A DNA stretch of 64,000 bases, taken from NCBI GenBank assembly GCA_002437725.1, contig DJRF01000024.1:53205-117204 (forward strand). The letters are read 5' to 3'. Shown piece by piece: positions 2,553 through 50,178 of this stretch. The notes under the pieces are model-generated. The model was given only the letters and a program-made list of their open reading frames with translations. It did no database searches and was not told the origin of the DNA. The position numbers and the translations under genes are program-made. Source of the stretch: Treponema sp. UBA6367 (lineage in GTDB: Bacteria; Spirochaetota; Spirochaetia; Treponematales; Treponemataceae). The number at the start of each line of letters is the position of its first letter. Position 1 is the first letter of the stretch.

Positions 2553-3650
2553 TTACTCAGCCTCAAACAAAACCGCGTCTTTTTGGCTTTCAACCTTGCC
2601 TTCCGCATAAGCAACGCGACCGATTTTATAGGCTTTCATGTCAGGAACATCTGGACGGCTGTATTTCGAAGCGTTTTTGTTAAACATTTCTAAAATGGCG
2701 TCTGAATCCTTTTCTTTTACAGCAAGAACAAATCCTATTCCCATGTTGAAAGTGTTGTAAATGGAATTAAGGTCTGCGCCTTTTTTTATAAGCTCTCCAA
2801 AAATAGGCGGAATATCCCAGCTAGAACGCTTAATAATAGAAACAAGCTGTTTTTTACCCTCTTTTGCTTTTGGATACATTCTAGGAATATTTTCGTAAAA
2901 TCCACCGCCTGTTACGTGAACCATTCCGTGAACAGATTTTCTATATTTTTTAAGAACTTCCATAACTGGACGAACATAAATTCGTGTAGGTGTAAGAAGA
3001 ACGTCTCCTATTGTCTTGCCGGTTTCCTTTCCATCGATAAGGAAAGGCTCATTAAAATCTTTTACCAAGCGGCGAACAAGACTAAAGCCGTTTGAATGAA
3101 CACCAGTTGAACTTAAGCCAATAAGAACGTCACCTTCTGCAATTTCCGCGCCGGTTATCATTTCCTTTTTTTCACCAACACCAACGGCAAAGCCTGCAAG
3201 GTCATACTTGCCATCATCGTAAAAATCTGGCATTTCGGCAGTCTCGCCACCTAAAAGAGCGCAGCCTGAATCAACACAACCGTCTGCAACACCTTTTACA
3301 AGGTCAGCGGCAACGTTGGCATCAAGTTTTCCGCAGGCAACGTAATCAAGGAAAAACAAGGGTTGAGTTCCAGAACACAAAATGTCATTAACACTCATAG
3401 CAACGCAGTCAATACCAACAGTATCGTATTTTTTCATTTTAAAAGCTATGTCGAGTTTTGTTCCAACTCCATCGGTTCCGCTAACCATAACAGGTTCTTT
3501 TATTCCCTTAGGAACTGCAAACATTCCGTTAAAACTTCCCAAATCTGTAAGTAAACCAGGAATTCGTGTGCGAGCAGCCTGCTCTTTATACTTGTTTACG
3601 GCGCGGTAGCCTTCTTCAACATCAACACCAGCTTCTTTGTAACTTGCCAT
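2553..3650 (-). CDS. purM: phosphoribosylformylglycinamidine cyclo-ligase (AIR synthetase)
   Basis: YKEAGVDVE, SGTDGVGTKL, LLGGETAEMP and GVHSNGFSL motifs. 365 aa. Confidence 0.92.
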   Translation of the reverse strand: MASYKEAGVDVEEGYRAVNKYKEQAARTRIPGLLTDLGSFNGMFAVPKGIKEPVMVSGTDGVGTKLDIAFKMKKYDTVGIDCVAMSVNDILCSGTQPLFFLDYVACGKLDANVAADLVKGVADGCVDSGCALLGGETAEMPDFYDDGKYDLAGFAVGVGEKKEMITGAEIAEGDVLIGLSSTGVHSNGFSLVRRLVKDFNEPFLIDGKETGKTIGDVLLTPTRIYVRPVMEVLKKYRKSVHGMVHVTGGGFYENIPRMYPKAKEGKKQLVSIIKRSSWDIPPIFGELIKKGADLNSIYNTFNMGIGFVLAVKEKDSDAILEMFNKNASKYSRPDVPDMKAYKIGRVAYAEGKVESQKDAVLFEAE

Positions 3651-6510: not shown

Positions 6511-7308
6511 ATGAACGAAAATAAAAAAAATTGGTGGAACTATGTAGACTTTTTTAAACTCACAGGGCTTTTATTAATTTGGGTTTCCGCATGGCTTTTT
6601 ATGCTGCCTTCTAAAATGAAGATAAATGAGCCATATTTCGAAAATATTTGGGGAAACATTTTTGCCTTTTTAGGATTTTCCAAAATCAAAACCGTAAAAG
6701 TTTGGCAGCTTCCAGATTTGCTAAGTTCTGTGTTTGCGCTTATCTTAATGACGATTTTACAACTGCGAGGAATTTTTTCTTTTGTGCCAAAACTTTCAAA
6801 ACAAAAAGAAAGCAAATCTATTGAAATAACTTTGAATACCCTGAGCATAATTGTTCACACATTGTTCTTTACCATGCTGGTGAAAGTATTTATTTTTCCA
6901 AATACAGAAACTTCAAATTTCATGCAGCAACTAAAAAACGATATGTTTATGACGATTTTTTGCACAATCTGCATAACAGGAATGATTTTAGGGGCAAGAG
7001 CAATTTCTAGACTTTTGCTTGTAATTTTTTCATTCTATGCGATTTTTAAAAACATAAACTTTATGAGCACCAGCTTAGGAATATGGGGATTTGCAGCAAT
7101 TGTTTGCGCGGTCGTTGGTTTCTATTTAGAATTCTGCACCGATGGATTTGATAAAACAAGACTTTTAATGGATTTGCACTTTTTAGCAGGAAATTACGAC
7201 TCTTTAGTTTTAAAAGAAAACGAAAAAGAAAGTCCTGTTGAAAAAAAAGATTCTTTGCCTTTAAAAAGCGTGAACAATTCTATAAATAAAACAAAAGTAA
7301 AATTATAA
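6511..7308 (+). CDS. hypothetical polytopic membrane protein
   Basis: 265-aa ORF with several hydrophobic segments. I recognise no family. Confidence 0.5.
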   Translation: MNENKKNWWNYVDFFKLTGLLLIWVSAWLFMLPSKMKINEPYFENIWGNIFAFLGFSKIKTVKVWQLPDLLSSVFALILMTILQLRGIFSFVPKLSKQKESKSIEITLNTLSIIVHTLFFTMLVKVFIFPNTETSNFMQQLKNDMFMTIFCTICITGMILGARAISRLLLVIFSFYAIFKNINFMSTSLGIWGFAAIVCAVVGFYLEFCTDGFDKTRLLMDLHFLAGNYDSLVLKENEKESPVEKKDSLPLKSVNNSINKTKVKL

Positions 7309-36022: not shown

Positions 36023-38308
36023 TTACACTTTCATTACTTCTTCTAAAAGCCGCCAGTCGCTGCCGTCGATGTCATCGCTGAAGTGTTCTGTGCAAATGCA
36101 CAGACGACCTTTTTTATCAGTGCGCACAAATCCGCCTTTCAGCTTGTACTCGCTAAGATAATTTTTTAATACTTCAAATTTTCGTGGCGCAAAATCATCG
36201 ATGTTTTGGCTCTGCCCGCTCGCGGAAAAACCGCCTTTCGTTTCGATTATCCAAGTTCCGTCCGCAGTACCTAAAACATAGTCCGGATAGAAGAGCCGCA
36301 TTTTTCCGCTTCCGTCTTTGTACGCAACCGAGTAAAAGTCCGTTCCCTTGTCGCCGTTTTTATAAAACCAATGCACAAAGGGTGAATTTTCACAGAATTC
36401 TTCAAACTTTCGCTCCGGCATTGAACGGACTTCCGCAGATTCCCGGTAATCGGCATAGACATTTTTGCTATAGACTTTCTGAGCCTTGTCGCTTCCATCA
36501 AAGGTAAAAAGACAGACTTGTGGAATGTGAAAATCCTTTTCTATGATTTCTGACGGTTCAAAGGTAAGAGTCGCCTGCGTTGAATTTCCTAGTTCTGTTA
36601 TTGCCTCGTGAAAATCAGTTTTCAAAAGAGCGGCATTATTGATTACAAACGCATACAGTTCCCGCGTTTCAAGATTTAAAAGCGAATATTTTCTGCTGGC
36701 AACTTTTGGATTTTTGTAGAAAACCCGGCGGAAAACCGCGTTCATCTTTTCGTATTTCAAGCTTACTTCCGTACTCAAAATTCCTATTTCATGATGAAAC
36801 TGCCTTCCGTGCGTATGCGTGTTTAGCGGAATTGCAAAGTTGGAATCATACAGCTTATTCATTTTGCCTGCGTCCAGAGTTTCAGTCTGTCCTATTTTTG
36901 CTGAAACCACAATTTTATCGCTGAAAATGTAGCCGTTCTTTGCCAAAAGTTTTTGATTGCCTTCAAAATTTCTTCCGGCAGTCAGGGCGTATTTTTTTTC
37001 AAAATGATTCACGACATTTTTCATCGTTTCCTCGGCATCATTTTCGTCGATTACATCCGGGCGTTGCTGAGTTTTTAGAGTAACGTCCTTGTATTCATCT
37101 TTTAGCTGAATGTAAGCCGCATCCCATGCGCCGTGTTCAAGAAAAGCCTTCGCTCCTTCAGTAAATTTGTTGTCCCAGGTATACAGATAGCAGCTGTCCA
37201 GAGCGTTGTCGCCGTAATGATGCGCGTTAGGCATTCGGCGGATTCGCCCGAAAGTCTGAATTTCAAACTTTTCGCCTTCGTGGTCGCGGAGTTTTACAAG
37301 AATATGCGCACGAGGGCAATCCCAGCCGGTCGCAACCGCCATCTTAAAAATCAGAGCTTCCTGCCGCACATCATTTTTTTCGATTTCTTCAAGATTTTCG
37401 TGCCGGCTGAACTTGCTTTTTCCGTTTTCGCTCAGCCAGATTGCAAGCTTTCCGTTTTCAAAGGAAACACCGTGATTTTCAAACCAGACTTGAACTTCAT
37501 CCAGCAATGAATCGGACGAGTTCGGCATTTGAACCAGAATCAGCGGATTTACATTTTCGCCATTCTCAAGGAATTTGCCGCGCAAGAGCCGCTGTTTTTC
37601 CAAAGCCTTGTTCAAAAGGTAAGAAACCTGACTTTCTCCTTCAAGTTCCGTGATTTCGCTGCTCAAAACCGTAATCGGAAAACCTTCGTTTATAATCAGC
37701 ATTTTCTTGACAAGCCCTTCTTCGATTACATCTTTTTCAGGAACTTCGATAAATTCAACCTTTGGGTCGCTCTGATTGTAACCGTTCGGTGTGGCGCTTG
37801 CGCGGATAATCGGAAGCCTTGCGCCAGCGTCCTTAAAATAGTTGATTATCACCGCGGATTTTTTACTGTCGTTCATGTGGCTTTCGTCGATAATCAGAAT
37901 GAAATTCAAGCCGGAATCTCGGGCACAACGGATGTACTCGATAAAGTTTGTGTGTTCTCCGTCGCGAACGGCGATATTGTCGTTTTTATTCAGAAGCTCC
38001 CAGTTGATAAAGCAGCAGTCGTTTTCAGAAAAACCGCTGGTCATCACATCGGAAAGCAGTTTTGTCTGCGCTCCATGAATGTATGCGTCCATTTTCTTTT
38101 TGCTCTGCTCTTCAAGGTTGCCTTTTCCTGGCGTGAACCAGATGAAAACCGTATTTGCGTGGCACTTCAAGTATTCGTCCATAAAGTGCGTGAGCATGAT
38201 TGTCTTGCCGCTGCCCGTGCAGGACTTTAGGATGATTTCTTCCTTGCCTTTTTCGATTGCCGCTTGGATGCGAGAAATCGCCGTCCGCTGAAAATTCATT
38301 AAATCCAT
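36023..38308 (-). CDS. res: Type III-like restriction enzyme Res subunit (SF2 helicase + C-terminal PD-(D/E)xK-like nuclease)
   Basis: Walker A CTGSGKT, DExH box IIDESH, and the C-terminal YPDYVLGTADGTWIIETKGG. It lies 13 nt downstream of the methyltransferase gene. By eye it is GC-richer than its neighbours. Confidence 0.7.
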   Translation of the reverse strand: MDLMNFQRTAISRIQAAIEKGKEEIILKSCTGSGKTIMLTHFMDEYLKCHANTVFIWFTPGKGNLEEQSKKKMDAYIHGAQTKLLSDVMTSGFSENDCCFINWELLNKNDNIAVRDGEHTNFIEYIRCARDSGLNFILIIDESHMNDSKKSAVIINYFKDAGARLPIIRASATPNGYNQSDPKVEFIEVPEKDVIEEGLVKKMLIINEGFPITVLSSEITELEGESQVSYLLNKALEKQRLLRGKFLENGENVNPLILVQMPNSSDSLLDEVQVWFENHGVSFENGKLAIWLSENGKSKFSRHENLEEIEKNDVRQEALIFKMAVATGWDCPRAHILVKLRDHEGEKFEIQTFGRIRRMPNAHHYGDNALDSCYLYTWDNKFTEGAKAFLEHGAWDAAYIQLKDEYKDVTLKTQQRPDVIDENDAEETMKNVVNHFEKKYALTAGRNFEGNQKLLAKNGYIFSDKIVVSAKIGQTETLDAGKMNKLYDSNFAIPLNTHTHGRQFHHEIGILSTEVSLKYEKMNAVFRRVFYKNPKVASRKYSLLNLETRELYAFVINNAALLKTDFHEAITELGNSTQATLTFEPSEIIEKDFHIPQVCLFTFDGSDKAQKVYSKNVYADYRESAEVRSMPERKFEEFCENSPFVHWFYKNGDKGTDFYSVAYKDGSGKMRLFYPDYVLGTADGTWIIETKGGFSASGQSQNIDDFAPRKFEVLKNYLSEYKLKGGFVRTDKKGRLCICTEHFSDDIDGSDWRLLEEVMKV

Positions 38309-38321
38309 AAGTCCTCCGCCG

Positions 38322-40097
38322 CTACAGCGCCAGGTCGCGGTAGTAATAGTCTGGAATCACATTGACGCTGATGTTGCGAGCTTTTAGGATTTGCTCCTGT
38401 CTTGAAGAAAGGAGGACGTCGTGCCCGACATAGAGAACTTTTGCGGAGGTTGAGCCTGCCGAAACCACAGCAGCTATAAATTCTTCCAGCTCATCGTCAT
38501 CAAGCACGATTGCCACTGTTTTGTCCTTGTCGAAATTGACGGCGTTTTCCAGTTCCACCAGTTCCCGAACATGCAGAAGAAGCTCGTCGGCATATTCGTA
38601 GTACATTTTTTCGCTGATTGGGATAAAGCCGGTTTTGAAGTATTTTAGAGAGCCGGGGAGAGCGTCGGAATAATTTGAACCGTCTTTGCGTTTTCCAGTG
38701 ATTACGGTTTTTAGCCGCTGATATGTGATGTCGCGGCAGATGCTGTTTTCGTTATTGGTGCAGAGGATGAATTTCCGGTGGCCGCCATCTTCTGCATTTA
38801 GTGCAAGTGTTGCATGACCTGCAGAGCCAGAACCTGCGAAGAAATCTAAAACAGTTATGTCTTTCTTTTTATGATAGTTGATAAATTGCTTAAGCATTTT
38901 TACAGGTTTTTTACCACTGCCGAAAGGAACTCCCCCTTCGTGGCGGATATTTCCAAAATCTGGCGAAAAATCGTATGCCGTAAGAATCGGGAGTTCTCTA
39001 GTAGGAGCATTTCCTGTTTCAAAGATTTTTCGTTTTTCCAAAGGAATTCCACTAAACATTTTTCCTTTAGTTGCATTTGCTTTAGCCGGTCCCGTATAAT
39101 ATCTGTATCCTAAGCCGTCATCACCACGACCTAAAACTTTGTATAAACATCCAAGTCCATCTTCTTCAATACGAGGTTCAACAATACTTTGAAAAACTTT
39201 TCCATAACTCATTGTTGTATATATACTTCCTGTAATCCAAGTCTCTTTTAAACCATCAATATTTCCTTGAACTTTTTCGATTTTCCAATCACCTTTTTTA
39301 AATACAACAACTTCTTGATTTTTTACAAATATATGCTCTCCGTCTTTTAATTCTGTAATCTTAAAACAAAAACCATCCAATCCATAATCAATTTTTTCCC
39401 GATTTGGATTAAAAAATAGATTATTTTTTGCATAGAATAAAACATATTCCATAAGAGGTTTAAAGGGTTTTTCTTCATTTATACTTTTTTCAGCATATCG
39501 GACTTGAATATGAAATGTTGCCAAATAGTTACCTACACCAAATATTTCATCACACAAAAACTTCATCGCAGAATATTCATTGTCATCAATAGAAATTGCA
39601 ATAAATCCATTTTGGGCAAGTAAATCTCTAGCAATTCTTAATCGTTTTGAAATAAAACTGCACCATTTAGAATGTCTAAAAGAATCATCTGCATCCACAT
39701 AATCATCATCGTAAATAAAATCTTTATTTCCCGTATTATACGGTGGATCAATGTAAATCACGTCAATCTTTCCGCGGTGAGTTTTTTCCAGGAGTTTTAG
39801 GCTGGCAAGATTGTCGCCTTCAAGCAGAAAGTTCAGTTCGCCGCCGTTGTCTACGAACAAATCTTTTTCTTCGGTAAAAATAGGCGCGTACTGTTCTAAA
39901 GTCTCATCGATTTTTTCGCGATGCTCTTCAAATACAAGTCCGTACTTTTTGCCGTTCACTTCCCTGCTAAGTTCTCCAAGATAGCCAAGCAGCTGCGAGG
40001 CATTTTTGTCGTTTGCGTTCTGTTCTATAAATGCTTTTATTTCTGCAATTTTTGAAAGCAAATCCTGTCGTTTTTCGCCTGAAATATTGGTAGACAT
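38322..40097 (-). CDS. mod: DNA methyltransferase, beta-class N6A/N4C (Type III Mod-like)
   Basis: Motif IV DVIYIDPPYNTG precedes motif I VLDFFAGSGSAGHA (beta permutation), with a long variable region between them. 591 aa. Confidence 0.8.
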   Translation of the reverse strand: MSTNISGEKRQDLLSKIAEIKAFIEQNANDKNASQLLGYLGELSREVNGKKYGLVFEEHREKIDETLEQYAPIFTEEKDLFVDNGGELNFLLEGDNLASLKLLEKTHRGKIDVIYIDPPYNTGNKDFIYDDDYVDADDSFRHSKWCSFISKRLRIARDLLAQNGFIAISIDDNEYSAMKFLCDEIFGVGNYLATFHIQVRYAEKSINEEKPFKPLMEYVLFYAKNNLFFNPNREKIDYGLDGFCFKITELKDGEHIFVKNQEVVVFKKGDWKIEKVQGNIDGLKETWITGSIYTTMSYGKVFQSIVEPRIEEDGLGCLYKVLGRGDDGLGYRYYTGPAKANATKGKMFSGIPLEKRKIFETGNAPTRELPILTAYDFSPDFGNIRHEGGVPFGSGKKPVKMLKQFINYHKKKDITVLDFFAGSGSAGHATLALNAEDGGHRKFILCTNNENSICRDITYQRLKTVITGKRKDGSNYSDALPGSLKYFKTGFIPISEKMYYEYADELLLHVRELVELENAVNFDKDKTVAIVLDDDELEEFIAAVVSAGSTSAKVLYVGHDVLLSSRQEQILKARNISVNVIPDYYYRDLAL

Positions 40098-40213: not shown

Positions 40214-40510
40214 ATGGAAGATTTTTACGATTCTTTTCGTCTTAATATAAAATTTTATCGAGAGAGAATGGGATTCAGCCAATCAGAACTTGCAATTCAG
40301 GCTAACAGTTCAAATGGCATGATTGGAAATATTGAATCAGGAAAGGCGAAACCATCATTTGATAATATATTAAAAATCGCCGCCGCCTTAAAAATTCACC
40401 CTGCAGACCTTTTTCTGCGCAATGCTTCATCGACTGTGTCAAACACTAAAAATCTTATGAAAACAAAACTGATTCCTCAAATAGAAGAATTTATTGAAAA
40501 GGAACTATAA
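40214..40510 (+). CDS. XRE-family HTH transcriptional regulator
   Basis: MGFSQSELAIQANSSNGMIGNIESGKAKPSFDNILKIAAAL is a classic XRE/Cro-C1 HTH. 98 aa. It is divergent from mod. Confidence 0.8.
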   Translation: MEDFYDSFRLNIKFYRERMGFSQSELAIQANSSNGMIGNIESGKAKPSFDNILKIAAALKIHPADLFLRNASSTVSNTKNLMKTKLIPQIEEFIEKEL

Positions 40511-40538
40511 AACAAGAAAAAAGTCCTTATAATTTAAT

Positions 40539-40627
40539 TAGCCCCAACTTCAAGTTTTTTATAACTGTAAAAAATACTTTCAACGAGTTTACAATTTGTT
40601 CAGACGGTTGTACTCGAACTTCGTTTT
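40539..40627 (+). repeat. truncated left half of the intergenic nested-palindrome element
   Basis: TAGCCCCAACTTCAAGTTTTTTATAA...TTTGTTCAGACGGTTGTACTCGAACTTCGTTTT is collinear with the left half of copy C and then stops abruptly at the start of the cassette arm. Confidence 0.75.
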
Positions 40628-40653
40628 ATCACTTTTCCTAGTTTTAATCATAG

Positions 40654-40748
40654 GTAACCAAGTTACTATAAAGGGTAACTCGGTTACTAACAAAGGTAAC
40701 TTAGTTACTAAAAAAATAACTTGGTTATTTTTTTGCGAACTTGGTTAT
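40654..40748. promoter_or_regulatory. array of five phased 13-bp palindromes (left)
   Basis: GTAACCAAGTTAC 40654, GTAACTCGGTTAC 40675, GTAACTTAGTTAC 40696, ATAACTTGGTTAT 40716, CGAACTTGGTTAT 40736. Start-to-start spacing is 21, 21, 20, 20. Confidence 0.85.
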
Positions 40749-40892
40749 TTCGTATTAAAACGCCTTTACAGAAGAAAAAATCTTGTTTACAGTTTTATTT
40801 AGGGTTTGTCAAAATCCTAAAAACGGCTGAGTCAATGTCTTGAGCGTAAGCGTACCTTGACCAAACGTATTATTAAAAAAGTTTTTGAGTGC

Positions 40893-40933
40893 GTAAGATA
40901 AAATCTGCTTATAAGTCGGCAATTTTATCTTAC
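40893..40933. promoter_or_regulatory. AAGATAAAA hairpin/palindrome, copy 1
   Basis: GTAAGATAAAAT - 17 nt - ATTTTATCTTAC (12-bp perfect stem). Its 3' end overlaps CTTACA, with TATCAT 17 nt downstream. Confidence 0.7.
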
Positions 40934-40992
40934 AACTCTACAAAAAACTTCTATCATTTCAACATTTCAAAAAAAACAAGATGAGGTTACTT

Positions 40993-41604
40993 ATGAAAAA
41001 AACATTTTTGCTATTAAGTCTTATTTTTGTTGAACTTTTTCTCACAGGATGTATCGCTGACAACACTATAGTAGAAGAACCAGGATTTTTATATAAAGTA
41101 GAAGTAAACATACACAATGAAAGTTCTTCAGAAAAAACTATTAGTACAGAAACTTATTCTCTTTGCGAAAATGACTGTCATAAATCAGCTGATGATGACA
41201 GTGAAAAAACAATCATTGCATCAAAAATGTTTGAGCGATATGAACATATTATTTCTTTCGATCTATACCCCCCTCCTCACCTTTCTCACATTTTTAAGAT
41301 TGATGGCAAAAACTTTGCAGGATTTAATCCAGAAAAATATACTTCTTTTCGAGACATCCATACAGGTAAGAAGATAGAAAAGATTACAGCTGTAAAAACA
41401 GATATTGGTTCTGTCGACTGGTCTCAAGATGAAAAACTTATAATAAATTATGAAGGAAAATCTTTTTACGAAAATACAGATTCAATTATAAAACTAATTT
41501 ATACAATAATTATAAAAGATGATGCAGATATTGCAGATTCAGAAAAATCTGAATATACAGAAGGAGTAAAAATTTCAATAACGCATAAGGTGGAAAAAGA
41601 TTAA
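40993..41604 (+). CDS. hypothetical lipoprotein
   Basis: ATG 40993 (MKKTFLLLSLIFVELFLTGC lipobox) is preceded by GAGGT. I recognise no family. Confidence 0.6.
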   Translation: MKKTFLLLSLIFVELFLTGCIADNTIVEEPGFLYKVEVNIHNESSSEKTISTETYSLCENDCHKSADDDSEKTIIASKMFERYEHIISFDLYPPPHLSHIFKIDGKNFAGFNPEKYTSFRDIHTGKKIEKITAVKTDIGSVDWSQDEKLIINYEGKSFYENTDSIIKLIYTIIIKDDADIADSEKSEYTEGVKISITHKVEKD

Positions 41605-41703
41605 ATCTTAACTATTTTTAAGGTAAATAAAATATTTTTTAATTTGTTACAATTTTAGTTTCTTAGTATTTTCAGATTAAAAAAAGTTTTGTATACTAAC
41701 TTT

Positions 41704-42465
41704 ATGAATGTAAAAAAAAGTTTTTTATACGAACGATTGATGATTCTTTTCGCAGCAATCGTTCAGTCTGTTGGTTTTGTAATTAGTATCACAGTAGAAA
41801 GCTATTCAAATTCCTTTTTGCCATATTGTAGAATTGTTGTACCCATTGCAAACATTTCATGTGCGGCTATTTGTTTTTTCTTAGTGGCTTTTCCTAAATT
41901 TAGATTTATGCAATCTGTTGTTTCATTTATTCAAGGGATAGTAATGACTTTGAATAATCTGATGTTCTTAGGGATTTTCCTTTACTTCTTTGGAATCGCG
42001 CTTCTTTTTTGCTATGGCTATTTAAATACTAAAAGGCAAGTAAAATACGTGCTTTCACTGCTTCCATTAATGCTGTCTTTTTTTATAATTCTACCTAAAA
42101 GCCTTCCCAAATTTTTTATGGCTTTTTCATATTCCTTGTTTCTAACATTCGCTTTTCTACACTTATATTTCACCGTAAAAAATTCATTACTTGACTTATT
42201 TCCTTTCTTATCTGATAAAATTTCTACAGCAAAGCTTCCTAAACATGGAGAAACCTTAAATTTAAAAAATTATGAACTTTCTGAAAGACAAATCGAGATT
42301 ACAAAAGAATTCTTAAAAGGTACTACAAATTATAAAAAACTTGCAGAATGTTTTGTAACAAGTGAATCAACTGTAAAAAAAGAAATGAGCAATGTTTGTA
42401 AAAAGTTCGGAGTAGACAATTCTACTGTTCTATTACTTTTACTAAAGCAGTATGAAATAATTTAA
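41704..42465 (+). CDS. polytopic membrane protein with C-terminal LuxR/GerE-type HTH
   Basis: About five hydrophobic helices, followed by LSERQIEITKEFLKGTTNYKKLAECFVTSESTVKKEMSNVCKKFGV. The start is ATG 41704 or TTG 41689. Confidence 0.6.
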   Translation: MNVKKSFLYERLMILFAAIVQSVGFVISITVESYSNSFLPYCRIVVPIANISCAAICFFLVAFPKFRFMQSVVSFIQGIVMTLNNLMFLGIFLYFFGIALLFCYGYLNTKRQVKYVLSLLPLMLSFFIILPKSLPKFFMAFSYSLFLTFAFLHLYFTVKNSLLDLFPFLSDKISTAKLPKHGETLNLKNYELSERQIEITKEFLKGTTNYKKLAECFVTSESTVKKEMSNVCKKFGVDNSTVLLLLLKQYEII

Positions 42466-42471
42466 TGACAT

Positions 42472-43719
42472 TTAAGAATTATGCTTACAAAATGCAATTA
42501 AAAATTCATCCCACAGTGAATTTTCATAAAAGCTCAAAATCTCATAATCTGAATTATTCTTAAAATAATAAGACTTTTCTTCTTTTGTATGAGGAAAATT
42601 AATTCCACAACCTCCAAACAATTTTTTATACAAACTTGAACTTCTGCAATTTGGAACAAGACTTTTAAAAGCATTTTTTAATTCAGTATTATCAAAGAAA
42701 AAACTTGCAGAATTAACAAACTCAAATAAATCAACAAACTCCGAATAAGATTCATCTGTGCAAGCAAGGTTCGCTCTTATATCTTTTATAATTTCAAACT
42801 TATCTTCCACATACAAAATAAGATTTTTACAAAAGGAATTAAACAGCGGCATAAAACTGTTAAAAGATTTTGTATTTACAAGTGAATAAGAAAAATCACT
42901 AGAAAAATTATTTTGATATTCATAAAAAGTTTCAACTAAATATTCTGCAAATTCTTTTGAATTGAAATCCTGAACACAACTTAAATAAGAAGCGATATTT
43001 TTATAATCACTACCAATTCCTAAAATTTGAGTTTCTGCACCAACAACATAATCAGTAAGATTTTTTAATTCATAACTTACTTCAATCATTTGCATATCGC
43101 AACAGTCAAATTGAATTATATCAATATATTTTTTATAATTCTCTTCGTATTCTTTTATATTTCTTGCCAACTTATAAATTGGCATAGCTTTATTTGCCCC
43201 ATACCCTGTTGAATAATCTTCAATAACACTGCGTAAATTGTTAGAAATAATTCCATCAGGATAAACTCCTCTTCCGTGACTCCAAATATTTAAAACCGTA
43301 TGCCTTGCCGGAAAATATTTATTAACTTTTGAAAGAAAATTGTAAAGAGTTTCAGAATTTGTCATATCAAGTTCATCATATTCAAAAATTATGTCGTCAT
43401 TCATTTTGTTTGGCGCTTTTGTGATATAAAACAAATCTGTACCTTTTCGATTATCTTCCGATTTATCATATCCTGGACTTCTGTCAAAAAGAACAATTAT
43501 ATTTGAACTGCTGCTAGACCCGATTTCTTGCAAAGATTTTATATTTTTGATTCCAAACCTTTCAAGATTATTGTCTGCGGCCATGTATATCAAGTAATTT
43601 ACTTCTTTTTCTTCATGAATTTTTAGAACTTTATTATTAGAGTTAATGTCATGATTGCAGGAAATGAATTCAAAAATAATAAAAAAAGGAACAATCTTAA
43701 ATACATTCAAATATTTCAT
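42472..43719 (-). CDS. clostripain-family (C11) cysteine peptidase lipoprotein
   Basis: YLIYMAADNNLE, WSHGRG (catalytic His context) and QFDCCDMQM (catalytic Cys context). Signal with FISC lipobox. Confidence 0.7.
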   Translation of the reverse strand: MKYLNVFKIVPFFIIFEFISCNHDINSNNKVLKIHEEKEVNYLIYMAADNNLERFGIKNIKSLQEIGSSSSSNIIVLFDRSPGYDKSEDNRKGTDLFYITKAPNKMNDDIIFEYDELDMTNSETLYNFLSKVNKYFPARHTVLNIWSHGRGVYPDGIISNNLRSVIEDYSTGYGANKAMPIYKLARNIKEYEENYKKYIDIIQFDCCDMQMIEVSYELKNLTDYVVGAETQILGIGSDYKNIASYLSCVQDFNSKEFAEYLVETFYEYQNNFSSDFSYSLVNTKSFNSFMPLFNSFCKNLILYVEDKFEIIKDIRANLACTDESYSEFVDLFEFVNSASFFFDNTELKNAFKSLVPNCRSSSLYKKLFGGCGINFPHTKEEKSYYFKNNSDYEILSFYENSLWDEFLIAFCKHNS

Positions 43720-44875
43720 ACATTAAACTGTCTATATTTGGAGTTTTATCTTTTTTCATATTTGAAGAAGTTAATATTACAATGCAAACATCTTTATTTT
43801 TGTTGTAAAACATTAAATTTTCATCACCAATGCTCCGTCCATAGGAACCTAAAAATTCAAAGTCTTTATAAAAAAGATTTCGTATTCCATAGCCATAAGC
43901 AATCTGCCCAGTATTTTTATCAGTAAATAACGAAACAGAGTTTTTTATTTCTTCGCGAAGTTCTTTTTCAATACTTCCATTAAAACTTAGCAAATTGTAT
44001 CCCCATTTTGATATTTCTTCTGCAGTTGAAACAATTCCACCTGCCGTCCAACCACACTTTCCTAACAGTTCTAGAACGTTGGGAATTATACCTGCAATAT
44101 CAATTGGCGTTTTTCCATCTCCAGAAAGTTCCATAAATGTATTTGGATAACAATGCGGATGAGCAACTTTGTTTAAGTTCACACTATCTTGTGGATAAAG
44201 CAAGACCGAAATATTCATAGGCGACAAGAGGTTTTGATTTACATATACGTTTGCTGCTTCATTTGTAATTTTTTCGATTATCATTCCTAGCAAAATGTAA
44301 TTCGTTGAAGAATATAAAAAATTACCACTAGACTCTGAAGGTTTTTCAATAAAAGATAAAATACTTTGAGCATTCCAATCATTTGTTTTTGAAAATGGAT
44401 TGTTATAAATCAATGCAGGATTTTCTGTATAATCGCTTATTCCAGAACGATGCGATAAAAGCTCTTTTATTGTTGCATTTGGGTTAATATAAATTGTGTT
44501 TATATTTTGAATGTATTTTGAAATGCTATCCTCTAAAGAAAGTTTGCCTTCATTTTTAAGCTTTAAAATAGCAGTTGCAACAAAACTTTTTGTTATGCTA
44601 TAAACAAAGTGAGGAGTCTGAATTTCATTTTTTGTTTTGCAAGATATAGAGGAATAACCATTTGCGTAATTATAATTTAACTTCTGTGATTTACTAAAAA
44701 CAGATACAGAAATCGCAGGTTTATAATCCCATTTTTCTATATAATTACAAATAACTTGTTCAATTTTTTCAAAAGTTGATTTATTACAGTTGTATTCAAC
44801 ATTTTTACATGCCGTAAAAAACACAAGGGCGCAAACTATTAAAAGATTTATAAAAAGCGACTTCATCTGATTCAT
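43697..44875 (-). CDS. beta-lactamase-fold serine hydrolase lipoprotein
   Basis: SxxK motif in VYSITKSF. The signal LIVCALVFFTAC is shared with the two upstream paralogues. The start is ATG 44875 or 44878. Confidence 0.7.
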   Translation of the reverse strand: MNQMKSLFINLLIVCALVFFTACKNVEYNCNKSTFEKIEQVICNYIEKWDYKPAISVSVFSKSQKLNYNYANGYSSISCKTKNEIQTPHFVYSITKSFVATAILKLKNEGKLSLEDSISKYIQNINTIYINPNATIKELLSHRSGISDYTENPALIYNNPFSKTNDWNAQSILSFIEKPSESSGNFLYSSTNYILLGMIIEKITNEAANVYVNQNLLSPMNISVLLYPQDSVNLNKVAHPHCYPNTFMELSGDGKTPIDIAGIIPNVLELLGKCGWTAGGIVSTAEEISKWGYNLLSFNGSIEKELREEIKNSVSLFTDKNTGQIAYGYGIRNLFYKDFEFLGSYGRSIGDENLMFYNKNKDVCIVILTSSNMKKDKTPNIDSLMYEIFECI

Positions 44876-44884
44876 CATTCTACC

Positions 44885-45832
44885 TCAATAATGGACTGCA
44901 ATATAATCACTACATTCAAGATTTTCATCACATCTTACAAATTTTACTTTATTGTTTTCTATTTTATAATAAGTTATAGAGGCAGTTTTTAAGCCATCTG
45001 CTACCTTTAGAGTAAAATAATCTGCAAACTCACTTTGCTTTGCATCAAGAAGATTAAAAGACACTGTTTTGTTTTCATCATCTATTTTTCCTCGTAAAGA
45101 AATTCCTTCATAGCAAGCGGTTTTCCTTGTTCCACAACCATAATAATATAAATCTAATTCAAGAGTTCCTTTATCATTATCTCGTCTTATATAATTTCTT
45201 ACATTTGGAATCCAAGAATATTTTGAGTAATCTATATAAACTTTTTTTGTAGACATATTATTTTTTAGATTTATATTAATAATTTCTTTATTTTTTATTT
45301 TTAGATTATAATTAAACTCATTTATAGTTGCCGTTTTGTCTGAAAGTCTAGTTAAAACTACAACTGCTTTATTTTCATCAGTTTCACCATCATACAAAGA
45401 TTTTTTTACATAGCAGTCGTATTCAAATTTGTTTTCTATATCTTTTTGTGGAATATCTATTCCGTTTGCACAACTCTTTGCTTCTTCAATCCAATGATAT
45501 AAAATAACGAGTCCGCTTTCATTTGAGTCATTAAAATCTAGTATAGTGCCTTGTCCAGATAATCTTAATCTAAATTTACCTTCATAATTACTGCTTATAA
45601 CTGATTCCGGCACATAGCTATGTAATTTTTTTCCTTGCTCACTTTGCCAATCTAACCACTCTGAAATACCGATGCACTGCGTATATTGAAAAGGATCTAA
45701 CCATTCAGGATAGTTTGAAATTTCTTTTCCGCGCAAATAGAATTCGTTGTCCGGGTTAAATGGGCATGCCGTAAAAAACACAAGGGCGCAAACTGTTAAA
45801 AGATTTATAAAAAGCGACTTTGTTTGATACAT
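44885..45832 (-). CDS. hypothetical lipoprotein, paralogue 2
   Basis: ATG 45832 (MYQTKSLFINLLTVCALVFFTAC) with GAGGT upstream. The N- and C-terminal thirds are near-identical to 45840..46790, and the centre has diverged. Confidence 0.65.
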   Translation of the reverse strand: MYQTKSLFINLLTVCALVFFTACPFNPDNEFYLRGKEISNYPEWLDPFQYTQCIGISEWLDWQSEQGKKLHSYVPESVISSNYEGKFRLRLSGQGTILDFNDSNESGLVILYHWIEEAKSCANGIDIPQKDIENKFEYDCYVKKSLYDGETDENKAVVVLTRLSDKTATINEFNYNLKIKNKEIININLKNNMSTKKVYIDYSKYSWIPNVRNYIRRDNDKGTLELDLYYYGCGTRKTACYEGISLRGKIDDENKTVSFNLLDAKQSEFADYFTLKVADGLKTASITYYKIENNKVKFVRCDENLECSDYIAVHY

Positions 45833-45839
45833 TTTTACC

Positions 45840-46790
45840 TCAATAATAATATGGACTATAATCCCTGCACTCAAGGTTTTCATTGCATCTTATAATTTTA
45901 GCTTTACTATTTTCTATTTTATAATAAGTTATAGAGGCAGTTTTTAAGTCATCTGCTACCTTTAGAGTAAAGTAATCTGCAAAGTCACTTTGTTTTGCGT
46001 CTAGAAGATTAAAAGAAATTGTTTTTTTTGCATCATCTATTTCGCCATGTAAAGAAATTCCTTCATAGCAATCTACACAGTTTTCCCATGTTTTTAAATC
46101 TTTTCCCATAAAAGCATGATACCCTTTTGCAAAATTTATAGCAGTTTTCGTCTCATTTACCTTTAGTCTATCAACTGAACATGGGAACCAAGAATGCTTT
46201 TTCATATCAATTGGCACTTCTTCTGAAATAAAGTTATTTTTCATATTGCAGTCTATAACAAGATTTCCAGCTATTTTTAGTTTGTAATTAAATCTGTTTT
46301 CTGTTGTTGAACTTTCTAATCTAGTAAGTACAACCTGCGCTTTATTTTCATCAGTTTCTTCATCATACAAAGATTTTTTTGCATAGCAGCCATATTCAAA
46401 TTTGTTTTCTATATCTTTTTGAGGAATATCTATTCCGTTTGCACAACTTTTGACTTCTGCAACCCAGTTATATAAAATAACGATTGCAGTTGATTTTGAA
46501 TCATTGAAAACGATGAATGTATCCTGATTTCCAAGATGCAATCTAAACTTTCCATTAAAATCTTTGCTTATTATATTTTCTGGAACATAATCATGCAAAC
46601 TTTTTCCTTGTTCACCTTGCCAATCAAGCCAATCAGATACTCCGACTCCGCCTCTTAACCATTCAGGATAGTTTGAAATTTCTTTTCCGCGCAAATAGAA
46701 TTCGTTGTCCGGGTTAAATGGGCATGCCGTAAAAAACACAAGGGCGCAAACTGTTAAAAGATTTATAAAAAGCAACTTTGTCTGTTTCAT
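45840..46790 (-). CDS. hypothetical lipoprotein, paralogue 1
   Basis: M(M)KQTKLLFINLLTVCALVFFTACPFNPDNEFYLRGKEISNYPEWL. The start is ATG 46790 (aligned with its paralogue) or 46793. Confidence 0.65.
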   Translation of the reverse strand: MKQTKLLFINLLTVCALVFFTACPFNPDNEFYLRGKEISNYPEWLRGGVGVSDWLDWQGEQGKSLHDYVPENIISKDFNGKFRLHLGNQDTFIVFNDSKSTAIVILYNWVAEVKSCANGIDIPQKDIENKFEYGCYAKKSLYDEETDENKAQVVLTRLESSTTENRFNYKLKIAGNLVIDCNMKNNFISEEVPIDMKKHSWFPCSVDRLKVNETKTAINFAKGYHAFMGKDLKTWENCVDCYEGISLHGEIDDAKKTISFNLLDAKQSDFADYFTLKVADDLKTASITYYKIENSKAKIIRCNENLECRDYSPYYY

Positions 46791-46808
46791 CATTCTACCT
46801 CAAGAATT

Positions 46809-48176
46809 CTATTTTCTAACAACATCCCAGTTTTTATAATGATAAACAGGTATGTAAGTTTCCCAGCTGCCATTTATTTTATCTGTGCAGTCCGCTAAGT
46901 CTAAAATTTTAAAAGATGGCCAGCAAAAAGGTCCCCAGCCGTTTCTTTTATAGCCGATTACAGGCCTATAGTGGCAACCTCCGTCACCAAAAACTCTTAA
47001 ACTAATGCCAGGCAAGTTGTCATTTATAGATTTTTTCGGATAAACAAACTGACTTGCTTTAAGAGTATATCTGCTATAATAATTAATTGCTCCAGCAAGA
47101 TTGTTTGGCATTGTTACAGAGCCACCGTCTTGACCACATAACCTTACAACACCAGCGATCAAACCTTTGCCAGTTCTCATTTTAGAATACAATTCTGCTT
47201 CTTTTTGAGACTCAGAAAGCTTGCTCCATAAGGATACATCAGAAATACTGTTTTTTTGAATATAGTCAAGCACAAAGCCTGCCGCAACAGGACCACAGGC
47301 TTTGTAATTGAAAATATGAATTTCATCTTCTCTCTTAAACAAAGTTTCATCTATAAAATTCCTATCAAGTTCAGTTCTTTCAGACTTGGCTTTGCCTCTT
47401 GCTGCAAAATCTGCAATATGACCTTTTTTCTCAACTGCCATTTGCCAAAAAACTTCCGCATTTTTTTCATAATCGCTTATTAATGCTCGCATTTTTTCAT
47501 CATCAGTATCGTCTAAAAAGTATTCTGAATATTTTTTAGAAACTTCTTCATAACCAGCAATCGAAGTTATATCACTTTCTTCTATATAATTTCCATCCGT
47601 TGTTAAATATGAACTAAATTCGTTTGCAGCACCTTTTGTTTCTTTTATAACTCCAAAAACAACATTCGGGTAGCCATCATCAACAATTCTTGGAAGCTCA
47701 TCTTCTAAAAGCTTGCCCTTATTGTATAAACTGGTAATTTCATCTGCATAGCCATCACATTTTGACTCATAGACTATCGGGCAACCATAAGATTTTTCCG
47801 CAGCTCCCACAATGACACCAACTATTTGCCATTCTGAAACAATTCTAAACTCATAAAACTTAATTTTTCCATTTGTTCCATAAATTGCCACAGGTATATT
47901 CCATAGCTCTGAATCTTGAGGATATTCATCAGCTTCTATAGAATCTTCCAGCCATAATTGCGCAAACTCTTTTGAAAGCTGCCAGTCTACAGAATTGTCA
48001 TCACCTCGCAAGGAATATTGATCTAATTCGCTTTCGCTTGTCAGTTTGGACATTTCCCATTCGATTTTGCCAGTATTTTTTGCTTTTGAAAAATTATCTT
48101 CTAATTCATTTGAATTACATGAACTAAAGATAAAAATTGGCAGGATAAAAAAGAAAAGAATAAAACTTTTTTTCAT
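46809..48176 (-). CDS. lipoprotein with C-terminal papain-fold (C39-like) cysteine peptidase features
   Basis: Signal plus lipobox (IFIFSSC). NYKACGPVAAGFVLDY (candidate nucleophile Cys) and GGCHYRPVIGY (candidate His). The family assignment is tentative. Confidence 0.45.
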   Translation of the reverse strand: MKKSFILFFFILPIFIFSSCNSNELEDNFSKAKNTGKIEWEMSKLTSESELDQYSLRGDDNSVDWQLSKEFAQLWLEDSIEADEYPQDSELWNIPVAIYGTNGKIKFYEFRIVSEWQIVGVIVGAAEKSYGCPIVYESKCDGYADEITSLYNKGKLLEDELPRIVDDGYPNVVFGVIKETKGAANEFSSYLTTDGNYIEESDITSIAGYEEVSKKYSEYFLDDTDDEKMRALISDYEKNAEVFWQMAVEKKGHIADFAARGKAKSERTELDRNFIDETLFKREDEIHIFNYKACGPVAAGFVLDYIQKNSISDVSLWSKLSESQKEAELYSKMRTGKGLIAGVVRLCGQDGGSVTMPNNLAGAINYYSRYTLKASQFVYPKKSINDNLPGISLRVFGDGGCHYRPVIGYKRNGWGPFCWPSFKILDLADCTDKINGSWETYIPVYHYKNWDVVRK

Positions 48177-48207
48177 ATCTATGAAAATCTCCCGTATAAA
48201 AGTGTTA

Positions 48208-48247
48208 TAAGATAAAAACCACCTAAATATAAGCAGTTTTTATCTTA
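48208..48247. promoter_or_regulatory. AAGATAAAA hairpin/palindrome, copy 2
   Basis: TAAGATAAAAAC - 16 nt - GTTTTTATCTTA (12-bp perfect stem). It lies 32 nt upstream of the start at 48176 on the minus strand. Confidence 0.7.
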
Positions 48248-48319
48248 CACGCGCAAAACTTTTTTAATAATAAAACTGTAAACAAGAATTTTTATTCTGT
48301 AAACCCATTTAGATACGAA

Positions 48320-48415
48320 ATAACCGAGTTCGCAAAAAAATAACCGAGTTACCTTTTAAGGTAACCAAGTTACCCTGTTTAGTAACCGAGTTCGCAAAAA
48401 AAATAACTTGGTTAT
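48320..48415. promoter_or_regulatory. array of five phased 13-bp palindromes (right)
   Basis: ATAACCGAGTTCG 48320, ATAACCGAGTTAC 48340, GTAACCAAGTTAC 48361, GTAACCGAGTTCG 48382, ATAACTTGGTTAT 48403. Spacing is 20, 21, 21, 21. Confidence 0.85.
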
Positions 48416-48445
48416 TAACAAGGAAATTTGCAACGCAAACTTTTA

Positions 48446-48484
48446 AAGATAAAAACTGACGTCATATCCGGCAGTTTTTATCTT
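48446..48484. promoter_or_regulatory. AAGATAAAA hairpin/palindrome, copy 3
   Basis: AAGATAAAAACTG - 13 nt - CAGTTTTTATCTT (13-bp perfect stem). Its 3' end overlaps CTTACC, with TATAAT (48504..48509) 16 nt downstream. It is upstream of the Na/Pi transporter gene. Confidence 0.7.
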
Positions 48485-48528
48485 ACCTCCTTGTTTTTAT
48501 CAATATAATCCACTAATATGTTAAAATC

Positions 48529-50178
48529 ATGACAGTAATATCATCAATTCTGCTTCTTGTGGGAAGCCTTGGTTTTCTTCTTTATGGAATGAGGCTCATG
48601 AGTGCAGGCGTACAAAAAAGCGCAGGAGAACGCCTTCAGCGAGCATTAGGCATGCTCACTGGAAACAGTTTTATGGGGCTTCTTACGGGTCTTTTAATAA
48701 CAATGATAATTCAGTCATCGGGCGCAACCACCGCAATGGTTGTCACTTTTATAAACGCAGAACTTCTTTCGCTTTCCCAGTCTGTAGGCGTTATTTTTGG
48801 CGCAAACATAGGAACTACAATCACCGCCTGGATAGTTTCACTTTTTGGATTCAACTTTCAAATTTCAACATTCGCCATTCCTATTTTTGGATTCGGCTTT
48901 TTTATGACTCTCTTTAAGAATCACAATGTCCGAAACATTGGCGAAGCCATAATGGGATTCGGATTGCTTTTCATGGGATTAAGCGGTCTTTCCGATGTTT
49001 TTAGTTTTGACGCTTCAAGCTTAACCTTTCTTACAAAGTTCCAGCAGTGGGGAGCACTTTCTGTAATAATTAGTTTTGTAATAGGAATTGTAATCACAGC
49101 CCTAATGCATTCTTCAAGCGCATTTACGGCAATCGTAATCACAATGGCCTATAACAACATAATAACCTGGGAAACGGCCTGCGCCATGACCTTAGGCAGC
49201 AACATCGGCTCAACAATTGATGCAATTCTAGCCGCCATTGGAACAAGCGCAGATGCAAAGCGTTCTGCCGTAATTCACGTTCTTTTCAATTTTATAGGAA
49301 CGATTCTTGCCTTAATTTTCTTCAAGCCTTTTATAACATTCGTAAAATGGATTACTCCAGGAAATAATATCGCGATTCAAATTTCCATGCTTCACACAGT
49401 ATTTAAAACTATAAATACTGCGATTTTACTGCCATTTAAGAACCAGCTTATAAAACTTTCGCAAATAATCGTTAAAGATTCAAAAGAAAACAGCCTAAAA
49501 CACTACCATTTGGATTTTCAAGAAGCCACTTTTGGAAAAGAAAGTTCTGCCATGCACATAATCCGCATTGAAAAAGAAATTGCAAACATGACCGATGTGG
49601 TAACTTCAATGTTCGACCAATTGCAAATCGGTTTTACAAATCGCTATAAATCTTTTACAGAAGAATACCACGAACAACTTGAAAACGAAGAAAATTACTG
49701 CGACCAAATGCACGAACAGCTGATTCGCTACATAATAAACTGCCAGCACTTGCCAGTGACAGACGTTCAGCGGAACAATCTTTCCATAATGATAACAATT
49801 ATTGAAGAGCTTGAAGGCATGAGCGACCAATGTTTTTCTGCGGCAATGCTGATTGAGCGAAGCATTGAAAAAAAGATGAAATTTCCACAGGAAGACATGG
49901 AACGCCTTATTCCTTACGTAGAACTTGCCCGCCAATTCTTACAGTTTATTCGAATCAACATAAACAAACACTTAGATGAAAAAAAACTTGAGCTTGCCAC
50001 AGAACTTGAAGACCAAATAGACCAGTATCGAAAAAATCTAAAAAAGATTGCAAAAAAACGGCTTGAAAATGGAGCAGACGTAAAAGCAGAACTTTTGTAC
50101 CTTGATCTTGTACGTCAAATAGAAAAAATCGGCGACCACGCGTTTAGCATTTCAGAGCTTCTTGCGCAAACCAAATAG
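48529..50178 (+). CDS. Na/Pi cotransporter family protein with C-terminal PhoU-like repeats
   Basis: Duplicated GANIGTTITAW / GSNIGSTIDA membrane repeats and a helical C-terminal domain. 549 aa. Confidence 0.8.
   Translation: MTVISSILLLVGSLGFLLYGMRLMSAGVQKSAGERLQRALGMLTGNSFMGLLTGLLITMIIQSSGATTAMVVTFINAELLSLSQSVGVIFGANIGTTITAWIVSLFGFNFQISTFAIPIFGFGFFMTLFKNHNVRNIGEAIMGFGLLFMGLSGLSDVFSFDASSLTFLTKFQQWGALSVIISFVIGIVITALMHSSSAFTAIVITMAYNNIITWETACAMTLGSNIGSTIDAILAAIGTSADAKRSAVIHVLFNFIGTILALIFFKPFITFVKWITPGNNIAIQISMLHTVFKTINTAILLPFKNQLIKLSQIIVKDSKENSLKHYHLDFQEATFGKESSAMHIIRIEKEIANMTDVVTSMFDQLQIGFTNRYKSFTEEYHEQLENEENYCDQMHEQLIRYIINCQHLPVTDVQRNNLSIMITIIEELEGMSDQCFSAAMLIERSIEKKMKFPQEDMERLIPYVELARQFLQFIRININKHLDEKKLELATELEDQIDQYRKNLKKIAKKRLENGADVKAELLYLDLVRQIEKIGDHAFSISELLAQTK

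Follow-up and report, generated by a model that had tools for sequence, protein, structure and literature searches.

We analysed 64,000 nucleotides of the genome of Treponema sp. UBA6367 (contig DJRF01000024.1, positions 53,205 to 117,204; hereafter the window), the host being a probable gut spirochaete. The window contains two arrays, each of five short near-palindromes, which lie on either side of a 7.8-kb segment occupied by two convergent transcription units. The unit beginning at the left array comprises a gene for a predicted lipoprotein, followed by a gene for a membrane protein of the GerE/LuxR type; that beginning at the right array comprises five genes whose products carry lipoprotein-type signal peptides (Table 1). 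G+C content between the arrays is 27–34%, as against 36–46% outside. Type III restriction-modification genes and an XRE-family gene occupy the upstream flank, and a Na/Pi cotransporter gene the downstream flank.

Table 1. Features of the two arrays and of the segment between them (positions are those of the window).
Feature	Position	Strand	Description	Basis
Left array, five sites	40654-40666, 40675-40687, 40696-40708, 40716-40728, 40736-40748		Promoter-proximal site 40736-40748; all match AACYNRGTT	
Right array, five sites	48320-48332, 48340-48352, 48361-48373, 48382-48394, 48403-48415		Promoter-proximal site 48320-48332; all match AACYNRGTT	
Left arm	40637..40935	+	Array, ACGAA box, promoter, 65-bp insertion (~40811-40875), hairpin	Pairwise alignment
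Right arm	48207..48415	-	Array, ACGAA box, promoter, hairpin	Pairwise alignment
TTCGTAT box (ATACGAA on the other strand)	40749..40755	+	Between proximal site and -35 hexamer	
ATACGAA box, right arm	48313..48319	-	Counterpart of the left TTCGTAT box	
Predicted sigma-70-type promoter, TTTACA-N17-TACAGT	40765..40793	+	Toward lipoprotein and luxR-type genes	
Predicted sigma-70-type promoter, TTTACA-N17-TACAGT	48275..48303	-	Toward five-gene operon	
Hairpin, TAAGATAAAA-N19-TTTTATCTTA	40894..40932	+	In predicted left leader; fold z = -4.2	
Hairpin, second copy	48208..48247	-	In predicted right leader; fold z = -6.2	
Predicted 203-aa lipoprotein	40993..41604	+	First gene after left unit; GAGG ribosome-binding site before ATG 40993	
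Candidate binder, 253 aa	41704..42465	+	Six predicted membrane helices and C-terminal GerE/LuxR helix-turn-helix	
Candidate target operon	42472..48176	-	Five genes with lipoprotein-type signal peptides	

Ten phased near-palindromes within an inverted repeat

A first-pass annotation of the window had listed ten palindromes in two arrays phased at 20–21 bp. All ten read directly from the sequence as listed, as near-palindromes of 13 bp, and seven fit RTAACNNNGTTAY exactly. This pattern occurs seven times in the window, on every occasion inside one of the arrays, whereas 100 dinucleotide-preserving shuffles gave a mean of 0.13 occurrences and a maximum of 2 (none of the 100 reached seven). The three remaining sites (CGAACTTGGTTAT, ATAACCGAGTTCG and GTAACCGAGTTCG) are off at two outer positions. 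A tighter core, AACYNRGTT, fits all ten and is found 12 times in the window (10 times within the arrays) against 4.9 expected, while a looser pattern, TAACNNNGTTA with one mismatch allowed, is at chance level in the 64-kb window outside the arrays. Distances from site start to site start are 21, 21, 20 and 20 bp on the left and 20, 21, 21 and 21 bp on the right, and Tandem Repeats Finder independently reports periods of 20–21 bp at both arrays. The spacers had been described as A/T tracts, which is true of most (CAAAAAA, TTTTTTTA) but not of all (CCTGTTTA). The sites lie 144–239 bp (right array) and 245–339 bp (left array, to ATG 40993) from the start codons, in agreement with the 145–340 bp noted earlier.

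With their orthologues included, the sites are near-palindromes of 13–14 bp with the general form RTAAC-N3/4-GTTAY, and information content reaches 1.8–2.0 bits at site positions A4, C5, G9, T10 and T11. The sites are oriented, since positions 6 and 8 are mostly not complementary: of 27 sites, 22 have C-N-A or T-N-G as their central triplet, and only five have a palindromic one (C-N-G or T-N-A). Across the window arrays and their orthologues, promoter-proximal sites tend to AACCRAGTT (forward) and distal sites to AACTYGGTT (reverse), an asymmetry that may reflect growth of the arrays by duplication, or asymmetric contact.

The two arrays are reverse complements of one another and belong to a longer inverted repeat of ~300 bp, which the first-pass annotation overlooked. 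Complementary stretches of the two arms match at 87% (40708-40799 with 48269-48360) and at 76% (40876-40926 with 48215-48265). Pairwise alignment shows that the common unit extends inward from each array through an ACGAA box, two TTTACAG motifs and an A/U-rich hairpin, nearly reaching the start codons.

Sites are conserved among strains while spacers diverge

Six contigs from other samples carry an identical regulator, that is, the membrane GerE/LuxR-type protein. The left array is unchanged in all six, and the right arm has five sites in each of the five contigs that span it. In two strain contigs (L235 and L237) the right array is divergent: it keeps five sites and the spacing of 20, 21, 21 and 21 bp, but its spacers differ and a different gene forms its outer flank. 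Among the three versions of the array the half-sites are 90–98% identical, as against 42–61% for the spacers (Fisher P = 0.003 to 7e-9), which indicates, as far as such comparisons can, that selection acts on the sites and not on the spacers. Because half-sites, site number and spacing are kept while the spacers diverge, the arrays are not a tandem repeat that varies freely between strains, an outcome that the first-pass annotation had considered fatal to its reading.

Taken with the comparisons below, these data support the view that selection maintains the arrays as sites for a DNA-binding protein that is sequence-specific and probably dimeric. To this extent the earlier interpretation of the arrays as targets of a dimeric protein holds; its subsidiary readings (iterons, centromere-like sites, transposase ends) do not.

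In one strain contig (L238, 8769-13490) the operon is cut off after a 126-aa fragment of the C11 peptidase gene and is followed instead by a ParA-like gene and several small open reading frames; the right array is not on the stretch examined.

The same unit adjoins regulator homologues in 11 other lineages

The comparison set comprised 23 metagenome loci plus further contigs for seven members of the regulator family. Arrays were sought in it with the pattern AAC-Y-N1-2-R-GTT and with a profile hidden Markov model; the strict 13-mer misses most of the orthologous ones, in which the centre of site 1 is often 4 nt long and the distal sites are degenerate. Eleven lineages besides the window species have two to four phased sites in the intergenic region that directly precedes a regulator homologue (array-bearing lineages: L045/L219, L204-206, L210, L211-216/226, L217, L223, L227/228, L240, L241 and L242). 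The regulators concerned are 52–66% identical, and the orthologous sites (AAC-Y-N1-2-R-GTT, ~20–21 bp apart) are always preceded by ACGAA and, 8–10 bp further, by TGTAAA (TTTACA on the opposite strand). The conserved unit is thus a -35 hexamer, an ACGAA box and two to four phased sites, placed between the regulator homologue and a divergent gene or operon. One such locus (L045), from a Spirochaetia metagenome-assembled genome, was obtained by scanning 185,579 species genomes for TAAC-N3-GTTAY followed, after a gap, by RTAAC-N3-GTTAY, and was the sole informative locus among the matches listed: it has three sites and the flank TGTAAACCCATTTnGATACGAA directly upstream of a membrane LuxR-type homologue.

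What lies on the far side of the unit varies. In L211-217, L226, L227, L240 and L242 the divergent operon is homologous to that of the window (the 455-aa protein, paralogous lipoproteins, a beta-lactamase-fold protein and usually a C11 peptidase); L210 has the window-type gene set minus the 455-aa gene; in L204-206 an S41 peptidase gene is divergent from the regulator, and in L241 and L219 genes for unknown proteins. The unit itself is confined to this context. No phased array of at least two sites occurs elsewhere in ~400 kb of these loci, and a 54-nt profile built from the -35 hexamer, the ACGAA box, site 1, an A-tract and site 2, when run over 2.14 Mb, gave matches below E = 1e-5 only beside regulator homologues; it also finds loci left out of its construction and, in the window, the two arms only.

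A protein of the GerE family is therefore consistently found beside the sites, in the window and in 11 other lineages. Four window gene families are conserved across the loci, and of their products this alone is a DNA-binding protein. Of the two neighbouring proteins that the first-pass annotation had named as possible binders, the membrane LuxR-type protein accordingly emerges as the best candidate, given that arrays of the same motif adjoin its homologues; the XRE protein has to be set aside. The sites could of course serve another transcription factor, either the XRE protein (40214-40510) or a regulator encoded elsewhere: short palindromes are likewise bound by XRE-type dimers, only 144 bp separate the end of the XRE gene from the left array, and co-localisation with the LuxR-type gene is circumstantial. 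However, BLAST found no XRE homologue in any of the 24 other loci compared, most of which bear an array, whereas of the window genes compared no DNA-binding gene other than the LuxR-type one recurs beside the arrays. Moreover, operators of restriction-modification controller proteins are located immediately upstream of, and inherited with, the controller gene, whereas here the arrays lie downstream of the XRE gene and outside its promoter, with the right array 8 kb away. We regard another factor as an unlikely owner of the sites.

The arrays abut predicted promoters

Each arm carries, at homologous positions and pointing inward, a candidate promoter found by consensus scan (Table 1). TTTACA followed 16–18 bp on, at the same offset, by a -10-like hexamer (TATAAT, TAAAAT, TATGAT, TATCAT or TAATAT) is present in 13 of 15 regions, and the ATACGAA box is kept in 13 of 16 aligned regions. 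Across regions the centre of the proximal site lies 21–23 bp upstream of the conserved TTTACA, at -57 to -59 from the predicted start; with the predicted promoters, which directly abut the arrays, the site centres in the window would fall at about -57.5, -77.5, -98, -119 and -140. The first-pass annotation had considered the arrays unusually far from the genes for an operator. With a predicted, conserved -35/-10 pair directly beside each array, the positions would instead be those of ordinary upstream activator sites, which makes a repressor array, another of the earlier suggestions, less likely than an activator array. The long distance between array and gene would be explained by a long 5' leader on the predicted transcripts: if the promoters are correct, the leaders would measure ~95 nt (right) and ~195 nt (left), each with a hairpin. 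A sigma-54 or extracytoplasmic-function sigma-factor promoter was also considered for the TGTAAA...ACGAA flank, and dropped as the spacings do not fit.

The hairpin is an A/U-rich palindrome, TAAGATAAAA-N17-19-TTTTATCTTA, present in three copies in the window where none is expected by chance (fold z -3.8 to -6.2). The third copy (48446-48485) is located just outside the right array, before the Na/Pi cotransporter gene. No TAAGATAAAA...TTTTATCTTA hairpin was found in the 226 loci searched, nor is there one in strain contig L235; the element is possibly an operator, a structure of the leader or a Treponema repeat. As it is not conserved, we abandoned the idea that the LuxR-type protein binds this palindrome.

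A further possibility is that the arrays themselves are a non-specific repeated extragenic element, or curved DNA with phased A-tracts, that serves no dedicated protein. They would then be comparable to the TD-type repeats of Treponema, among them TD-2, an element with several hairpins that is repeated in Treponema denticola and has no known function (PMC1950547). The corresponding Rfam model (RF03162) matches the third hairpin copy plus a small neighbouring hairpin, and this match overlaps the outer end of the right array, but it scores 33.0 bits against a gathering threshold of 48.7 and only its 3' hairpin aligns well; no Rfam family reaches its gathering threshold anywhere in the window, where all matches (TD-2, csRNA and others) are sub-threshold. 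In-phase A-tracts are indeed frequent in the spacers, yet it is the palindromic cores that are conserved and not the A-tract spacers, the conserved unit is found only beside one gene family, and site number and spacing are stable between strains. An origin of the arrays as repeats or curved DNA of this sort is thus highly improbable.

A small family of membrane-embedded GerE proteins

The candidate binder matches the Pfam GerE model with 26.3 bits (cutoff 23.5) and NCBIfam LuxR-family models weakly. An AlphaFold2 model based on an alignment of 31 family members (mean predicted local distance difference test score 78) has helices at residues 5-30, 42-62, 68-83, 87-103, 111-127 and 134-165, followed by a four-helix C-terminal domain. 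Only this last domain finds matches when the model is compared with the PDB by Foldseek, the top ones being GerE-type domains (RhlR, GerE, NarL, VraR, LiaR and RcsB) with root-mean-square deviations of 1.2–1.8 Å over 55–62 residues and template-modelling scores of up to 0.86 against isolated domains; the same search returned no structural relative of the six-helix domain. The distribution of basic residues, which occur at the N-terminus and in every other loop, would place both termini inside the cell.

The family is narrow, with 36 clusters at 45–72% identity, and a search of 1.84 billion representatives with the N-terminal 180 residues yields just 41 clusters (63–324 aa, mostly ~250). Of ten distant relatives scanned, six keep weak C-terminal matches of the helix-turn-helix type, four of these to GerE. 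These regulators are a small, undescribed family of membrane-embedded GerE proteins, and a search for literature on Treponema, LuxR and clostripain found nothing relevant.

Immediately before the window gene (41690-41706) a TATACT hexamer preceded by TG ends 6 nt before the ATG, and orthologues show TGTATAAT-N6-8-ATG at the regulator start; this arrangement suggests a conserved, leaderless basal transcript of the regulator.

A model for regulation by the arrays

GerE-family domains bind as dimers to inverted half-sites 7–10 bp apart, and members such as BvgA and NarL align multiple dimers upstream of the -35 hexamer. The size of the sites described here, and their spacing, suit a dimer of such a domain. 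We consider it probable that each array provides upstream binding sites for the six-helix membrane protein encoded nearby, a one-component regulator of the GerE/LuxR type. Each 13-bp near-palindrome (half-sites RTAAC and GTTAY) would be occupied by one dimer of its C-terminal helix-turn-helix domain, and adjacent dimers would lie on the same DNA face at intervals of two helical turns, the first of them ~20 bp upstream of the TTTACA -35 hexamer. Once the membrane domain is switched on by a signal, the bound row would help RNA polymerase to initiate transcription from the promoter beside it. Most relatives have one such unit, placed between the gene for the regulator and a divergent operon for lipoproteins and peptidases; in the genome of the window the array, predicted promoter and leader are duplicated in inverted orientation, such that they would drive two convergent operons. 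The right copy would drive the five-gene operon, and the left copy the lipoprotein gene and then, by read-through, the regulator gene, creating positive feedback.

Several observations sit uneasily with this model. The regulator gene of the window has no array directly upstream, the nearest being 950 bp away, and in four lineages (L207-209/L239, L229/230, L231 and L220/221) the regulator is found without an array. Arrays are absent from lineages that lack the divergent operon or have other genes in its place: what remains is a remnant, AAATACGAATTAA, in L229/230, one terminal site in L207-209/L239, and nothing in L231 or L220/221. The GerE match is barely over its threshold, and the window -10 hexamer is weak (TACAGT, 4/6). 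Since promoter-like matches are not enriched over shuffles in either region, it is positional conservation only that argues for the promoters. The central triplet of the sites is mostly non-palindromic, which a symmetric dimer does not call for, though this may simply stem from the history of site duplication. Lastly, co-localisation leaves room for a binder encoded elsewhere in the genome.

A bolder version of the model can be imagined, in which the five-site arrays are polymerisation platforms for the membrane-embedded regulator. With both occupied, the ends of the 7.8-kb island would be tethered to the cytoplasmic membrane and transcription of the six lipoprotein genes coupled to export; the multiplicity of sites would provide avidity for a diffusion-limited membrane protein, and the whole would amount to a compact, self-contained and apparently mobile cassette of an undescribed six-helix, intramembrane-sensing GerE family. 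This is speculation to which we would give only a small chance.

In its simpler form the model is directly testable, because it specifies the sites and their spacing, the promoter and the candidate binder. It connects a defined DNA motif with a small, unnamed family of membrane LuxR-type proteins in gut Treponema, which are poorly tractable genetically, and the probable regulon of that family is a surface-lipoprotein operon whose products include a peptidase of the clostripain family and a hydrolase with the beta-lactamase fold. If true, the recently described membrane-spanning LuxR activators would extend beyond the Coriobacteriia, and to a much smaller sensor domain, and spirochaete genetics would gain a compact inducible promoter/regulator pair. 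No current concept would be overturned: as a cis-regulatory element the array is of a conventional kind, and it is the small regulator family attached to it that is undescribed.

Inverted duplication or mobile element

The inverted arrangement admits another reading, namely that they form the terminal inverted repeats of a 7.8-kb element that is mobile or invertible, each end having multiple sites for a recombinase or transposase as in Tn7 or Mu. Mutually inverted arrays do bracket the segment of low G+C, and the module is found in different chromosomal neighbourhoods across lineages. Yet genes for a transposase, integrase or invertase are absent between and beside the arrays, the outer flanks (...aatcatag and taacaagg...) share no direct repeat and thus show no target-site duplication, and homology of the arms extends inward through the promoters and not outward. 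In ten of the 11 other lineages there is one array only, inside the divergent promoter region, and L240 has a second copy that is direct. All five contigs spanning the whole segment have one gene order and orientation, giving no sign of inversion between the arms. We therefore consider it very unlikely that the arrays are the ends of such an element. Movement of the module as a cassette is a separate matter, and is suggested by the low G+C of the segment and by the differing chromosomal neighbourhoods.

In L240, a distant lineage, the two copies of the unit are at 3110-3190 and 6860-6945; the second, direct copy consists of a promoter and two sites and lies at the 3' end of a three-gene operon. 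The regulatory unit was therefore duplicated there independently of the inverted duplication in the window.

Relation to known regulators

BvgA at the fha promoter and the heptamer arrays of NarL are multi-dimer promoter arrays of response regulators of the GerE/NarL family. By analogy, the arrays described here would resemble them in having dimers on inverted half-sites, several of them lined up along the same side of the helix, about two turns apart, from distal positions to just upstream of the -35 hexamer, and perhaps also in the activation of RNA polymerase by cooperative occupancy. Those regulators are soluble and controlled by phosphorylation, whereas the candidate here is membrane-embedded and without a receiver domain; five near-equal sites per promoter is, besides, at the high end. 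ToxR, TcpP and CadC are membrane-bound one-component regulators, and a similar analogy can be drawn with a membrane-anchored factor that binds promoter DNA at the membrane through several tandem sites upstream of -35. They have an N-terminal winged-helix domain of the OmpR type, one membrane helix and a periplasmic sensor, whereas the candidate has a C-terminal GerE domain and, in the model, a six-helix bundle with very short loops.

The closest published counterparts in domain order are DadR, CadR and HcdR of Eggerthella lenta (PMC9734109). These LuxR-type proteins have 10–12 helices and activate neighbouring genes in response to small molecules. They share with the window protein a polytopic N-terminal membrane domain joined to a C-terminal LuxR/GerE helix-turn-helix, and a gene placed beside, and often divergent from, the genes controlled. 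They differ in having 10–12 helices where the model of the window protein has six in ~165 residues; with six, the window family lacks the defining feature of the Eggerthella type, and relatives of its N-terminal domain, mostly ~250 aa, are too short for 10–12 helices. They differ also in host (Coriobacteriia as against Spirochaetia), in that the window protein belongs to a very small family, and in targets, which are metabolic enzymes in Eggerthella and, as candidates, secreted lipoproteins and peptidases here. Activation has been shown for the Eggerthella proteins, and is what the positions of the arrays would predict in Treponema. The main text of the paper, searched by terms, mentions no inverted repeats, palindromes or regulator-binding site.

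Look-alike repeats and the iteron reading

The architecture of the arrays (four or five palindromic repeats, two helical turns apart) would also suit the iterons of a replication origin or a centromere-like partition site, and a pattern scan of viral contigs (IMG/VR) did recover repeats of this type. Phage contigs L119 (5423-5500), L184 (100-177) and L127 (2919-2996) each have four GTAACTCAGTTAC or GTAACTGAGTTAC repeats, 20–25 bp apart, inside an open reading frame of ~340 aa. In L119 this frame encodes a Phage_rep_O initiator (E = 1.8e-20) and is followed by the gene for a DnaC/IstB-like loader; L184 likewise has its four GTAACTCAGTTAC repeats in a lambda O-type initiator gene beside a DnaC-like loader, while the frame in L127, with similar repeats, has no Pfam match. 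As in lambda-type iterons, then, there are four nearly identical 13-bp palindromes, and they have the AACYNRGTT core in common with the window arrays. However, the repeats of L119 and L184 lie within the initiator (O) gene and beside a helicase-loader gene, whereas the window arrays are intergenic and abut promoters, with no replication genes nearby. No initiator, ParA/ParB or ParR is found among the nine window proteins scanned (40214-50178), and neither an initiator nor a partition or transposase gene belongs to the segment or to the four conserved families; the gene tables of the related loci list no initiator, and the only ParA-like gene, in L238, is part of an unrelated replacement of the operon. 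Orthologues usually have a single array, those examined stand on contigs with chromosomal housekeeping genes (e.g. uvrB and htrA), and a BLAST search of plasmid and phage records with the 341-bp arm gave no match. Together these data leave the replication and partition readings with next to no probability.

The scan of species genomes was dominated, among the matches listed, by pairs of TAACANTGTTA (actinomycetes, Psychrobacter and others). Palindrome pairs of TAACANTGTTA or TAACTTCGTTA exactly 21 bp apart are present in many unrelated genomes and viral contigs (L001-L203, among the matches listed), with hosts that include Mycobacterium, Psychrobacter, Arenicella and other Treponema; their motif is distinct from that of the window arrays. 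In one Chitinophagaceae contig (L071, 794-975), nine near-perfect 21-bp tandem copies containing CAACCTAGTTATG lie near the gene for a giant fibronectin-type-III protein, and are a plain tandem repeat that matches the search pattern by accident.

Other genes of the segment and its flank

The 203-aa lipoprotein has no Pfam match, and BLAST of the compared loci gave no homologue in other lineages. The first gene of the five-gene operon (transcribed from 48176 to 42472) encodes an unknown protein of 455 aa; the other products are two further unknown proteins, paralogues of 317 and 332 aa, together with a protein of beta-lactamase fold and a peptidase of the C11 clostripain family. A sequence search of the PDB with the 455-aa protein found no match, and Pfam and NCBIfam leave the unknown lipoproteins unassigned, save for one sub-threshold NCBIfam match of the 455-aa protein. 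The two paralogues are encoded in tandem (44885-45883 and 45840-46793) and are ~63% identical, and a 135-nt block that encodes the signal peptide is repeated three times, ~957 bp apart, in 44741-46790; both features indicate a recent tandem duplication inside the target operon.

The type III restriction-modification genes (res, 36023-38308; mod, 38322-40097) are on the minus strand, and the XRE-family gene (98 aa, 40214-40510) is divergent from them, such that its product may be their controller protein and not a partner of the arrays. The mod allele differs among strains, encoding either 573 or 591 aa.

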